From contig CAZELK010000002.1 in NCBI GenBank assembly GCA_964513145.1, positions 18,413 to 82,412 of the forward strand: a DNA stretch of 64,000 nucleotides, written 5' to 3'. The position numbers and the translations under genes are program-made. Position 1 is the first letter of the stretch. Each line of letters starts with the position of its first letter. The notes under the pieces are model-generated. The model did not search any database and had not been told where the DNA came from. It was given only the letters and a program-made list of their open reading frames with translations. This document shows, piece by piece, positions 3,945 to 46,946 of this stretch. Origin of the DNA: Candidatus Woesearchaeota archaeon (GTDB lineage Archaea > Nanobdellota > Nanobdellia > SCGC-AAA011-G17 > JACPIM01).

Positions 3945-9479
<5,535 letters not shown>

Positions 9480-9514: not shown

Positions 9515-9877
9515 TTATGATTTTAAAACCCTTTTTATTCTTTTTGTAAAAAATATGCTTAGTTTCTCTGGTTCTTCTAAACTCATATAAATAATTTTAT
9601 CTATTTCTTTAGCTAATTCCTCTTGAAAAGTTATAATCTCTTTTGGTATTGAAACAACATAGCTATTTCCAACAAACCTCAGCTTTACATTAAATTCCTT
9701 TCTTTTCAATTTTTCAAAATTATTATACTCTTGTAAATCTAAGGGATGAAACCATCTTTTATGACAATTGTTGCACTCCCATGATCTTAATTTAAAACCA
9801 TCTTTAAGTACAAATCCTTTAGTTGTCTTTCTATTGCAATTTTCGCATAAAATTGTTGTATCATATATATCGGCCAT
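9515..9877 (-). CDS. Zn-ribbon (CxxC...CxxC) + swapped-hairpin (AbrB/SpoVT-like) domain protein; paralog of 32091..32432 and 45766..46110
   Basis: CENCNRK...CNNCHKR, then KLRFVGNSYVVSIPKEIITF. I place the start at the internal Met (MADIYD); the longer track ORF reads through an AT-rich promoter. Confidence 0.45.
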   Translation of the reverse strand: MADIYDTTILCENCNRKTTKGFVLKDGFKLRSWECNNCHKRWFHPLDLQEYNNFEKLKRKEFNVKLRFVGNSYVVSIPKEIITFQEELAKEIDKIIYMSLEEPEKLSIFFTKRIKRVLKS

Positions 9878-10027
9878 ATTTAAATTAAATGTATATATTA
9901 AGTATATACAAGAAATATATAAATATTTCGGTAATAAGGGCTTTGCACAAGTTAGGCATTTCTGCACAAGAATAGAATTTGTAATTGAAGTTAATAACAG
10001 CAAAGTATTATAAAATTTTAAATGAAA

Positions 10028-17818: not shown

Positions 17819-18904
17819 TTAATCTAAAAAGTCTTTATTTTTAATTTTTTCAGGTAAGTATTTCTCAGAAATAAAACTTATACCTTTAGAAGTAAGGGAC
17901 TGAATTTCTACTTTAGCTTCGAATTCTTTCATCATCTTAAATTGTCTTTGCCATTCTTTATTATCTTTAAACCAAGCATATTCTGAAACTTGTTTAATTC
18001 TTGCATAATCTTTTTCATCTAATTTAATGAAGTGTTTTTTAAGATCGTATTTGATAACATCATCCATAGTGATACCAACATATTTTACGCCCGGAATTGT
18101 TAATCTTCCTGACGCATGAGACAGCGCGATGCTGCCGTATTTAATTACGGAGTAAATATATGCACCGTAAATGTCCCCGTCACAGAGTACATAAACTGGT
18201 AGCTTATGTTCTTCATATAATCTTTGTAATAATCTTCTAATTCCTCTTGTAGTTTGACCTTGTGAAGAAATTATAATACAATCATTTTTTTCCCAGAATT
18301 TATCTTCCTGCAAACGTTCCCAAACAGCTGCTTTTTCCATATAAAGAACATATTTAGCATTTACTTTCTTAAATATGATTTCATCAGTGATAGATGGGAC
18401 ACTCCACCCCCCACTACCCATTTTACTTAAGTCAATAGTATCTCCTTTATCTTCAATTACAACTTTTCCAGCTACACTTCCCATTTTATTAGCAGCTACA
18501 TGTAATTGTTCCCTGGAAAAATCAGTAATGACTTCTAAATCTTCAATAGCTTTGTCAGATTCGGTTTGATCATCAACTAGATTAATATTTGTGCCTGGTA
18601 TAGTTCTCTTTACCATGTAAAATACATCTCTTAAACTTGAATGTTTGCCAGAACTCAATAATTCATTTTTTATAACAGAGGCAACTTCAACAGTCTGTAA
18701 AAATTTCTTGGAATGTGCAACATTAAAGAAGCTCCTGGAAGACATTTTGTCTCCTAATTTTAGTATTTTTTGTTTAGTATCATAAACTATATTGCTTAAA
18801 TTTCTTAAGCTCATTTCAATTTCAGGATTTTTTCCTTTTTTAATTTGATCAACTATCTTATTGCCAAAATCTTCCAAAACTTTTTTTGATTTATTTTCTG
18901 CCAT
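17819..18904 (-). CDS. top6A: DNA topoisomerase VI subunit A (Spo11-like)
   Basis: Toprim DxD (YVLCDGDIYG), winged helix with catalytic Tyr region; 361 aa. Confidence 0.85.
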   Translation of the reverse strand: MAENKSKKVLEDFGNKIVDQIKKGKNPEIEMSLRNLSNIVYDTKQKILKLGDKMSSRSFFNVAHSKKFLQTVEVASVIKNELLSSGKHSSLRDVFYMVKRTIPGTNINLVDDQTESDKAIEDLEVITDFSREQLHVAANKMGSVAGKVVIEDKGDTIDLSKMGSGGWSVPSITDEIIFKKVNAKYVLYMEKAAVWERLQEDKFWEKNDCIIISSQGQTTRGIRRLLQRLYEEHKLPVYVLCDGDIYGAYIYSVIKYGSIALSHASGRLTIPGVKYVGITMDDVIKYDLKKHFIKLDEKDYARIKQVSEYAWFKDNKEWQRQFKMMKEFEAKVEIQSLTSKGISFISEKYLPEKIKNKDFLD

Positions 18905-31579: not shown

Positions 31580-31687
31580 CTATTTATTGATAACTTAATA
31601 TATTAATAAAGTTTTCTTTCAAAATTGATTTTGTTTATTGTAAGTTTTTGACTAGACTTGAAACATTTTCTTTTGAAGAAAAGCTTA

Positions 31688-31811
31688 TGGGCCCGGAGTG
31701 ATTTGAACACCCGACATATACGGCTTCAGCGTATTGCTCTCCTTAGCCACTCTTCTTAGTTTTTTTGATTAAACTTTTTTCTAAAAAGTTTACAGGCTGA
31801 GCTACGGGCCC
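31688..31811 (-). tRNA. tRNA-Phe (anticodon GAA) with a ~50-nt intron in the D-loop
   Basis: Acceptor GGGCCCG/CGGGCCC; anticodon arm ATACG-CTGAAGC-CGTAT (G37 present); T arm GGGTG-TTCAAAT-CACTC. The D-arm GCTC-AGCCTG[insert]GGA-GAGC is interrupted. The insert carries the hairpin AAACTTTTT-AGA-AAAAAGTTT. Confidence 0.7.
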
Positions 31812-31897
31812 GAAAAGAAAAATTAGAAGAAGGTATTTAAAGATTTCCAAGAAGGTAACGTAAAATTTATATAGTATTTTATACTATAAAATATTGA

Positions 31898-32107
31898 ATG
31901 GTTCACTTCAAAGAGATAAAGGCAACAGAACACTATAAAAATGAACATGAAAGAGAAGTTCCATTTGACAAAGTTATTGAAATAATCTTGTCTACAAAAA
32001 ACCCAAGGAAAAAAGAAGATAAATTTGAAATTGAAAAAGAAGGTTACTATATATTGTTTGAAATACAAAACAATATTTTATATGTAATAAATGCCAAAAA
32101 AACTTAG
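31898..32107 (+). CDS. small RelE/ParE-like putative toxin
   Basis: 69 aa ending in the YYILFEIQNNILYVINAKK beta-strand pattern. Overlaps the downstream Zn-ribbon gene by 17 nt. Confidence 0.35.
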   Translation: MVHFKEIKATEHYKNEHEREVPFDKVIEIILSTKNPRKKEDKFEIEKEGYYILFEIQNNILYVINAKKT

Positions 32108-32432
32108 GAGAGTAAAAATGAAATGTCCAAATTGTAGTTCGGAATTAAAAAAGGTAAAGGTAAAGGTAGAGAGAGCTAAAAATCCAGTCATAAGCCATCA
32201 ATGTACTAATTGTGATTATTTTGAATTTGAAGAAGAATCATCAAAAAGAGTTATAGAAGAATTAAGAGAAAGTCCTCTAAAAATAAAACAAAAAATTGTA
32301 AAAATATCACAAGATAAATTAGGAATCTATTTTAATAGTAACATTATAAGAAGTTTAGAATTAAAAAAGGGTGAAGAGATTTATATTTCTGTTCCCGATA
32401 AAAAGCATATTGTTTTAGAATTAAAAAAATAA
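32091..32432 (+). CDS. Zn-ribbon + swapped-hairpin (AbrB/SpoVT-like) protein, putative antitoxin/DNA-binding
   Basis: CPNCSS...CTNCDY, then KIVKISQDKLGIYFNSNIIRSLELKKGEEIYISV. Confidence 0.5.
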   Translation: MPKKLRRVKMKCPNCSSELKKVKVKVERAKNPVISHQCTNCDYFEFEEESSKRVIEELRESPLKIKQKIVKISQDKLGIYFNSNIIRSLELKKGEEIYISVPDKKHIVLELKK

Positions 32433-32549: not shown

Positions 32550-33587
32550 CTATTTCGTCAATACTCGTTTAGTTCTAAATTTACTTTTAGGTCTGGAATT
32601 CAGCATTTTATCTTGTTCTTTTATTTTAACAAAATTCCACTTCCAAACATCTTCGTCCCTTACAAAAATTATAACCCTGCTTATTTTATCTTTTAATTTG
32701 GGAATATAACCTGTTTTATCCCCTATAACTTTTCCATACTCCTCTATATCTTTCATTGTAGGCATGTTACTTAGTTTGAGTCTTTTTTTACTTTCTCCTA
32801 GCCAGGAATACCCTTTTAATTGCACAAATTTTGGTTTGTAAATATTAATTAAATCAGAAAATTCAGAGGCATTATGATCATTCAAACCTTTTGTAATTGT
32901 AGTTCTCATTATAGTTCTTGAGTGTTTAAATTCTTTCATTAAACTTAAACTTTCTTTAACTTTTTCAAAAGCATTTGGAATCATGGAATTTGTAATTTTT
33001 TTATAATCTTCTTCATTCGTAGCATAAACACTAATGCTTAAATTATTCGGTTCAGCATCTTTGTCCAACATTTCTTTAATTCTGTTTGGCATTGTTCCAT
33101 TTGTAACAATAAAAACAGTCATCTTTCTATTTTTTATTTCTTTAATTAAATCTGCAATTTTTGGATAAAGTGTTGGTTCTCCGTCTAATGAAATTGCAAC
33201 ATGATGTGGATCCATTGCCTGAGCAAAATTTTCTTTAGTAACTATTCCGCCAAAACCAGATAATAAATTTCTTTGTGCACCAATTATTCCATCAACAATT
33301 TCTTCAGGCTCATCCCATTTATTTTCTGACTTAAATCTGTCTTTGCCAAATTTACGCCAACAAAATGTGCAGGAAAAATCACAAAAATCCATTGAGCTGG
33401 TCATTTGGACACAGCGGTGAGATTTAATACCGTAAATAGATTTGTAACAGTTATGGTCATTTTTAATTTTAGATTTAGTCCAGCGACATAACTGAACAGC
33501 AGTATGTTTATTCTTGCCTACAAATCTATATCCTGCTTTCTCATACTTTTTCTGTTCGTCGTTCGATAATTTTACAAATTCTTGCAT
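32550..33587 (-). CDS. taw1: radical SAM tRNA 4-demethylwyosine synthase (TYW1/Taw1)
   Basis: CDFSCTFC (Cx3Cx2C) radical SAM motif and a second N-terminal Cys cluster; the length and layout of archaeal Taw1. Adjacent to tRNA-Phe. Confidence 0.7.
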   Translation of the reverse strand: MQEFVKLSNDEQKKYEKAGYRFVGKNKHTAVQLCRWTKSKIKNDHNCYKSIYGIKSHRCVQMTSSMDFCDFSCTFCWRKFGKDRFKSENKWDEPEEIVDGIIGAQRNLLSGFGGIVTKENFAQAMDPHHVAISLDGEPTLYPKIADLIKEIKNRKMTVFIVTNGTMPNRIKEMLDKDAEPNNLSISVYATNEEDYKKITNSMIPNAFEKVKESLSLMKEFKHSRTIMRTTITKGLNDHNASEFSDLINIYKPKFVQLKGYSWLGESKKRLKLSNMPTMKDIEEYGKVIGDKTGYIPKLKDKISRVIIFVRDEDVWKWNFVKIKEQDKMLNSRPKSKFRTKRVLTK

Positions 33588-45765: not shown

Positions 45766-46110
45766 TTATTCTTCTTTTATTTCAACTAATATTTTGTTTT
45801 TTCCAATTTTAGATATTAAAACTTTCTCATCACCTTTTAAATGTAAATTTTCTTCAATGTCAGTCGGTATTCTTAAAACGGTGCCACGAGCACTTCTGCT
45901 AAGTTTACGATGAAGTTTAAGTGGTTCGCCCCACAAACCTAATCTTCTGGCAATCTCTATAGTATTTTGCGATACTTTTTCCGAAATAAATTCTTCATTA
46001 CAACTATTACATCTTTTACCTCTTTCTATAAAAAAGTGACCTTCAATTTCTGATATAATATCATCTACATCAATTAGTTCTCCTTTTTCACATATTGGAC
46101 ATTTTTTCAT
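45766..46110 (-). CDS. Zn-ribbon + swapped-hairpin (AbrB-like) protein, paralog of 32091..32432
   Basis: CPICEKG...CNSCNEE, then GTVLRIPTDIEENLHLKGDEKVLI. Confidence 0.5.
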   Translation of the reverse strand: MKKCPICEKGELIDVDDIISEIEGHFFIERGKRCNSCNEEFISEKVSQNTIEIARRLGLWGEPLKLHRKLSRSARGTVLRIPTDIEENLHLKGDEKVLISKIGKNKILVEIKEE

Positions 46111-46111
46111 T

Positions 46112-46306
46112 TTATTTTCTTTCAGCTCCAGATATTATAAGTATTGATTTATCAAATGAATCGTAAACAAAAATTATTTTTTTGTCTCCACTTCTTTTAG
46201 TATAAACTTCATATTTAGTTTTTTCTGATTTATCAATTTTTCTTATTAAATCTGTATTTAAATAGATCATGAGTAATTTTGCCAATAAATAAATTATAAA
46301 ATCCAA
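46112..46306 (-). CDS. small RelE/ParE-like putative toxin (start uncertain; overlaps GT2 3' end)
   Basis: KYEVYTKRSGDKKIIFVYDSFDKSILIISGAERK: the RelE-like C-terminal pattern. Confidence 0.3.
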   Translation of the reverse strand: MDFIIYLLAKLLMIYLNTDLIRKIDKSEKTKYEVYTKRSGDKKIIFVYDSFDKSILIISGAERK

Positions 46307-46946
46307 TTAATAATATTTTAATTCCGGTATTTAATCTGCCATTTTTCTCAAAGCGTCTGACAGAAGTTTTTATTTTAACTGAATTCAATAAATATATCTT
46401 AGTAATCTTTTTTAATCTTCTTACATAATCAAAATCTTCACCAACCTTAATAGAGTCATCAAATCCATTTATTTTATTATGTAAGGATTTCAATGTAAAG
46501 ATACAGCAGCCATTAAATCCAATATATTTATAAAAAAATTTAATAAAAATTCTAAATCCAGCAAAAAAGAATAAATCAATTAAATTATTGCTATCTGGGT
46601 ATACAGAGCACCCGGCAATGTTCACATTTTTCTCTCTCATTTCTTTTAAAGCTTTTTCTAAAAAATAGTCATCAAATGAAGTGTCAGCATCTAAAAATAA
46701 AACTATATCATATTTAGCCATCTTTAAGCCAAGATTTCGTTGAAAAGAAACATTTCTTTTATCAGATTTAAAGATTCTTAAATCTAATTTTTTATTAAAT
46801 CTTTTAGCATTAAAAACAGTATTGTCATCTGAGTCAGCATCAACCATAATAACTTCAAAATTTTTAAAGGTCTGTTTGCTTAAGCATTCCAATAGGCAAT
46901 GTATATAGTTTTCTTCATTTAAAGTAGGTATTACAATAGATAACAT
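46233..46946 (-). CDS. family 2 glycosyltransferase
   Basis: LSIVIPTLNEE...VDADSDD...DADT (DxD). Confidence 0.75.
   Translation of the reverse strand: MLSIVIPTLNEENYIHCLLECLSKQTFKNFEVIMVDADSDDNTVFNAKRFNKKLDLRIFKSDKRNVSFQRNLGLKMAKYDIVLFLDADTSFDDYFLEKALKEMREKNVNIAGCSVYPDSNNLIDLFFFAGFRIFIKFFYKYIGFNGCCIFTLKSLHNKINGFDDSIKVGEDFDYVRRLKKITKIYLLNSVKIKTSVRRFEKNGRLNTGIKILLIGFYNLFIGKITHDLFKYRFNKKN

Follow-up and report, generated by a model that had tools for sequence, protein, structure and literature searches.

Do a small toxin-like gene and the zinc-ribbon gene directly behind it, in the genome of a DPANN archaeon, make up a toxin-antitoxin (TA) operon? The question is raised by a 64,000-nt stretch of contig CAZELK010000002.1 from a Candidatus Woesearchaeota archaeon (hereafter the window), whose DNA is AT-rich and for which exact or near-exact protein copies are found in Woesearchaeota and Nanoarchaeota metagenome bins. 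A first-pass annotation of the window, made from the letters alone, listed two open reading frames (ORFs) of 69 and 113 aa on the + strand (31898-32107 and 32091-32432), both of which are present, and took them for an under-described type II TA architecture with the toxin-like gene first. Here we name the first gene T and the second Z. We consider it fairly probable that they form an autoregulated type II toxin-antitoxin-like operon, because of the fold of T, the zinc ribbon of Z, the linkage and co-evolution of the two genes, the operator in front of them, the decay that strikes T specifically and a natural fusion of T with a zinc ribbon.

T is a genuine gene. Its homologs form 129 clusters (identity 62-86%), which bears out the earlier assumption that the small upstream ORF is coding, and its protein sequence is conserved in loci whose G+C content spans 26-50%; third codon positions vary, and the fold is predicted with confidence. 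In a sample of 36 homologs 17 residues are invariant, including H12, Y13, H17, K34, P36, K38, K39, N65, A66 and K67, and the motifs holding invariant residues are HY..EH, KNPRKK and INAK. Because they are invariant, H12, Y13, H17, K34, K38, K39, N65 and K67 are candidate catalytic or RNA-contacting residues. The predicted structure contains the β-α-α-β-β-β(-β) core of the RelE/ParE (BECR) superfamily; every close neighbour in the structure comparison is a toxin and the nearest match is BrnT. Among the 36 family members, no match to ParE/RelE (PF05016), BrnT (PF04365), DUF4258 (PF14076), MqsR or other such toxin families was obtained at E ≤ 0.1. A profile search of the PDB with T was empty, and the T profile, run exhaustively with HMMER against 1.84 billion representatives, returned only 76 matches, none of them bridging to a named family. 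The T family is small and closed. The RelE/ParE-like character ascribed to T at first pass is therefore to be kept for the fold and given up for the sequence families.

The start of Z has to be moved. As listed, the second ORF overlaps T by 17 nt. The homologs of Z (459 clusters) are in their majority 104 aa long with the N-terminus MKCP, and one gene caller predicts the same form for the window's own Z. The corresponding ATG at 32118 has AGGAGAG ahead of it and leaves a gap of 10 nt to the stop codon of T, while the ATG at 32091 is a by-product of the conserved Asn-Ala codons of the T motif INAK, read in another frame. Judging from the homologs, the start is most likely ATG 32118, which makes the 17-nt overlap a probable artefact.

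The CxxC...CxxC signature reported for the second protein is indeed there. The AlphaFold2 (AF2) model of Z is confident for residues 1-50 only, comprising the zinc ribbon and a helix, and the best structural neighbours of this part are the TFIIB-type zinc finger ZifS (8yoz) and the N-domain of MqsA (3hi2/3gn5), with non-significant scores; MqsA takes rank second to fourth among the PDB matches to the Z model. Pfam Zn_ribbon_TFIIB is matched, below threshold, by 27 of 36 Z members. The C-terminal half, described earlier as an AbrB/SpoVT-like swapped hairpin, is likely AbrB-like. It has the typical AbrB/MazE sequence pattern with predicted β-strands, and Pfam MazE_antitoxin (SpoVT/AbrB, PF04014) is matched by 21 of the 36 members (best E 0.0045), in all cases below the 24.7-bit cut-off; comparison of AbrB with the Z profile gives a weak match (E 0.015 over 23 columns). 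No helix-turn-helix match was obtained in Z, and the C-terminal XRE-type domain that defines MqsA is lacking.

Upstream of T, the TATA box TTTATATA (31866-31873) overlaps the inverted repeat TATAGTAT-ttt-ATACTATA (31870-31888). In approximately 60 independent loci the region upstream of T carries the family motif TTTATATAGT[AC]-N5-[GT]ACTACA-N4-TGTAGT[AC], which is a TATA box fused with three GACTAC-type half-sites in inverted orientation; in most loci a GGTGA ribosome-binding site comes next. The copy in the window is without the third half-site and has a leader of 9 nt. The operator overlaps the TATA box and extends towards the transcription start, the site where an archaeal repressor would block initiation, and Z presumably binds it. 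A loose operator pattern, searched on both strands of the window and of approximately 1 Mb of loci (about ±10 kb per genome), gave 68 matches, of which approximately three lie away from a T promoter. The window alone holds four matches vs. 0.18 expected, and two of the four are the T-Z palindrome itself. None of the additional sites in the window or in the approximately 1 Mb of loci was convincing. Among those checked, the sole other exact match to the half-operator TATAGT-N7-ACTA outside coding sequence is TATAGTTTATGATACTA at 18775-18791 on the - strand of the window.

T and Z are inherited as a unit and diverge together. A scan of GTDB species representatives yielded 73 loci, and all informative labels among them are DPANN (Woesearchaeota, Pacearchaeota, Nanoarchaeia), the few non-DPANN labels being taken to be bin mislabelling. 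In agreement with the gene order and tight linkage proposed at first, T lies directly upstream of Z in 59 of approximately 70 species loci, and the pairwise identities of the two proteins correlate (r = 0.70, a value reached by 0 of 2000 Mantel permutations).

In approximately 10 of 70 species T is deleted or truncated and Z is intact. Only fragments of T are left in seven loci, both genes have decayed in two, and three loci lie at a contig edge. T has been wholly deleted, leaving the operator and Z, at loci L014 and L064; in-frame internal deletions have removed the KNPRKK region at L047 and L065; T is truncated at L030, L037, L060 and L061 and frameshifted at L066. Each case differs from the others, so the lesions are independent. 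Z is kept in T-less loci together with the operator, with no fall in its profile score. At one further locus (L059, approximately 9700-10000) Z stands directly after an MBF1-like helix-turn-helix gene, with neither T nor operator, and has been re-wired into another operon.

The fusion mentioned above is a complete 105-aa gene found on five contigs (one of 322 kb), in which a divergent T domain is in frame with the zinc ribbon only; the AbrB-like half and the operator are absent. At locus L168 (1933-2250) its KNPRKK is replaced and INAK has become DARNAK. The gene appears to be derived from the module, as a single-chain form, and parallels the DUF4258-MqsA fusions of Gerdes (PMC11980606). Such an architecture supports the zinc ribbon as the probable T-interacting module. 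Together with the recurrent loss of T where Z is retained, it lends indirect support to the predicted growth arrest by T and its neutralisation by Z.

In a TA operon of this kind T would be an endoribonuclease that cuts mRNA, on or off the ribosome, with H12, H17, the KNPRKK loop and the C-terminal NAK as putative active-site or RNA-binding residues. The zinc ribbon of Z and the helix that follows it would attach to T and inhibit it, in the way that MqsR is blocked by the MqsA N-domain. The AbrB/MazE-like C-terminal half would dimerise as a swapped hairpin and bind the GACTAC-type half-sites, and Z seated on these, over the TATA box and the stretch to the transcription start, would keep the operon repressed. 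If Z were lost or turned over, T would be released and the operon derepressed. The likely role of the module is that of a stress, defence or growth-control switch.

In operation, T-Z most resembles MqsRA and the DUF4258/MqsA-like pairs. As in MqsR/MqsA of E. coli (3hi2, 3gn5), the toxin gene comes first and a palindromic operator lies in the promoter; MqsA, too, has an N-terminal C4 zinc ribbon, which contacts the toxin, and a separate C-terminal DNA-binding domain, such as is predicted in Z. The domain differs, however, being an XRE helix-turn-helix in MqsA and a weakly supported AbrB/MazE-like β-segment in Z. In addition, MqsR (98 aa) is longer than T (69 aa) and shares no sequence similarity with it, T-Z is archaeal and DPANN-restricted, and all MqsA matches are below curated thresholds. 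DUF4258 (PF14076; = Ntox49/colicin-like BECR) is a BECR toxin family for which 17 fusions with MqsA have been reported (PMC11980606). It shares with T a small BECR fold, an N-terminal 'H-[AYF]' helix motif, a C-terminal β-strand ending in '(I/V)(T/N)..' and an MqsA-type zinc-ribbon partner or fusion. One Woesearchaeota metagenome-assembled genome (MAG; locus L061) has a bona fide DUF4258 gene (30.7 bits vs. a cut-off of 25) adjoining a Z-like zinc-ribbon protein. Neither T nor T2, the toxin-like partner of the sister module described below, matched Pfam DUF4258 at E < 1. BrnT/BrnA (Brucella abortus; 3u97) is unlike T-Z in that BrnA is of the ribbon-helix-helix type and has no zinc ribbon. In AbrB/MazE/SpoVT-type antitoxins (MazE, AbrB-type VapB, the Doc partner) the swapped hairpin is N-terminal and a disordered toxin-binding tail C-terminal; in Z the two parts are the other way round, and a folded zinc ribbon would bind the toxin in place of the tail, the assignment of the domain being insecure. 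In the literature searches neither a zinc-ribbon/AbrB antitoxin nor the DPANN family itself turned up. T-Z is best read as belonging to the BECR-toxin/MqsA-like class, of which it would be a new variant whose DNA-binding domain is AbrB-like.

Several observations weigh against the TA interpretation. T has no match to a Pfam or NCBIfam toxin family (in Pfam none at E ≤ 1), and PADLOC has no family match for the pair; with nothing above threshold in any of the three, the architecture is indeed under-described. Comparison with the DUF4258 protein of L061 by hhalign gave E 0.19 for T and E 0.012 for T2 (probability < 4%), neither of them significant. The support for the AbrB-like domain of Z consists of sub-threshold matches and a low-confidence monomer AF2 model (pLDDT 40-65 for residues 52-104), which tempers the first-pass assignment; an obligate dimer fold could explain the poor monomer model. 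The pair is usually single-copy per genome, two MAGs carrying two copies. Both Z profiles were run against IMG/VR viral contigs and gave no match. T and Z exceed most of the adjacent housekeeping genes in conservation, and Z with its operator outlasts T.

The last three of these observations would suit a different history, in which the whole module, or at any rate Z, became a domesticated regulator. We regard this as distinctly less likely. The clusters of Z outnumber those of T, and the high conservation is not recent: third positions in conserved codons are approximately 50% identical, and this value is flat across amino-acid identities of 0.4-0.8, which means that synonymous sites are saturated. 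Saturation points to long-term purifying selection and not to recent transfer, and it counts against the TA interpretation as well. The zinc-ribbon proteins may also be housekeeping factors, a view that has in its favour these saturated sites and the intactness of Z in species that have lost T. An unusually conserved TA-like MNT-HEPN gene in a housekeeping context of DPANN was described by Makarova et al. (PMC6393860) and provides a precedent. On the other hand, no second operator site was found in the approximately 1 Mb of flanks, a sample limited to about ±10 kb per genome. T has been destroyed repeatedly and independently, as is expected for a costly or toxic gene, and wherever T is present, strong purifying selection acts on it. 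Nor is the genomic context constant, 64 distinct contexts occurring among 74 loci.

Recent horizontal transfer as the source of the high conservation was considered and rejected, given the flat third-codon-position identity of approximately 0.5. A mobile-element origin drew no support from the IMG/VR scans; the many different contexts and the two copies in two MAGs would speak for mobility, the strong conservation and saturated synonymous sites against it. The conservation of the pair reflects old divergence under strong purifying selection. Strong conservation and orphan Z genes that retain the operator are ill-suited to a purely selfish element. The module has long resided in DPANN genomes under strong constraint and is not of the selfish kind that moves fast.

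The same conservation, being very high, could also be ascribed to a translation-linked, non-toxin role for the pair, an idea to which the neighbours in the window (the genes for cysteinyl-tRNA synthetase, tRNA-Phe and Taw1) lend some colour, as does the failure of known toxins to give a sequence match. We hold this to be improbable. The neighbourhood is different in nearly every species, and T has been lost in approximately 15% of species and is therefore not essential. Furthermore, an operator whose palindrome lies over the TATA box indicates autoregulation at the DNA level, as in TA operons, and the close structural neighbours of T are all toxins.

A toxin-antitoxin-like operon thus being the preferred reading of T-Z, the other zinc-ribbon genes of the window (Table 1) can be compared with it. 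The pairing was said to recur at 45766..46306. The zinc-ribbon protein there is a paralog of Z (profile-profile probability 94%, E 1.2e-7), but the ORF upstream of it shows no similarity to T. It belongs instead to another family, T2, and covers only positions 41-82 of that family's 83-position profile (50 bits). The N-terminal half of T2, with its conserved KHF motif, is gone, and the remnant, truncated at its 5' end, starts with TTG and is overlapped by the 3' end of a glycosyltransferase gene (46233-46946). Copy B is a sister module with a decayed toxin-like gene and not a second intact copy. It is also only for copy B that the view of the small upstream ORFs as chance ORFs finds a foothold, in the short 64-aa frame, its TTG start, the overlap and the missing half. 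For the genes in general that view is highly improbable, and for T it is refuted, in the face of the protein conservation of T with its invariant residues, variable third positions and confident fold, and of T2 being full length in 59 of 81 loci of relatives. Comparison of the T and T2 profiles aligns them in the same register (E 0.0087, probability 4.6%); at these values common ancestry of the two was not demonstrated by sequence.

The third zinc-ribbon/AbrB-like gene stands alone, as described at first pass. No toxin-like ORF was seen upstream of it. Its product gives two matches that fall short of the cut-off, one to the NCBIfam doc_partner family (TIGR02609, E 7.8e-6) and one to Pfam MazE_antitoxin (E 0.0049). 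BLASTP gave no significant match to Z, while the zinc ribbon matches the Z profile with E 1e-4 (probability 56%). The gene lies 36 nt upstream of an intein-bearing CDC48 gene. This neighbour (3945-9479, - strand) is a CDC48/VCP-type AAA ATPase ORF of 1844 aa, apparently split by three intein-like insertions with Hint/homing-endonuclease-type sequence.

Table 1. Coordinates in the window of the T-Z operon and of its relatives.
Feature	Position	Strand	Remarks
Promoter and putative operator of the T-Z operon	31866..31888	+	TATA box overlapping a perfect inverted repeat
T, toxin-like protein, 69 aa	31898-32107	+	First gene of the T-Z operon; RelE/ParE-superfamily (BECR) fold
Z, zinc-ribbon protein, 104 aa	32118..32432	+	Start inferred from homologs
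Copy-B zinc-ribbon protein, Z paralog	45766..46110	-	26% identity to Z (BLASTP)
T2 remnant, copy-B partner, 64-aa ORF	46112..46306	-	C-terminal ~40 aa of an 82-93-aa protein, IDKSEKTKYEVYTKRSGDKKIIFVYDSFDKSILIISGAERK
Third relative, 121-aa zinc-ribbon protein with AbrB/MazE-like segment VKLRFVGNSYVVSIPKEI	9515..9880	-	Solo

Near the operon, a tRNA-Phe gene (anticodon GAA; 31684-31812, - strand) has an insertion of approximately 45 nt in the D-arm region. Rfam matches 31695-31750 only (32 bits), the 5' acceptor/D-arm piece GGGCCCGTAGCTCAGCC lying at approximately 31796-31812, and ARAGORN finds no tRNA in the whole window. The product of Taw1 makes wyosine on tRNA-Phe, and the Taw1 gene (32550-33587, - strand) is located approximately 750 nt from the tRNA-Phe gene.

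The T-Z family yields a prediction, that of a BECR-fold RNase under the control of a zinc-ribbon repressor, with a defined operator sequence. The BECR/MqsA-like TA class would gain an antitoxin that apparently joins an MqsA-type ribbon to an AbrB-type instead of a helix-turn-helix domain. Strong purifying selection together with repeated loss of the toxin-like gene makes the family a test case for whether TA modules become fixed as regulators in reduced genomes, a question raised earlier for the conserved MNT-HEPN gene in DPANN (PMC6393860). The finding would be of greater interest if the unusual conservation proves to mean a fixed cellular role.
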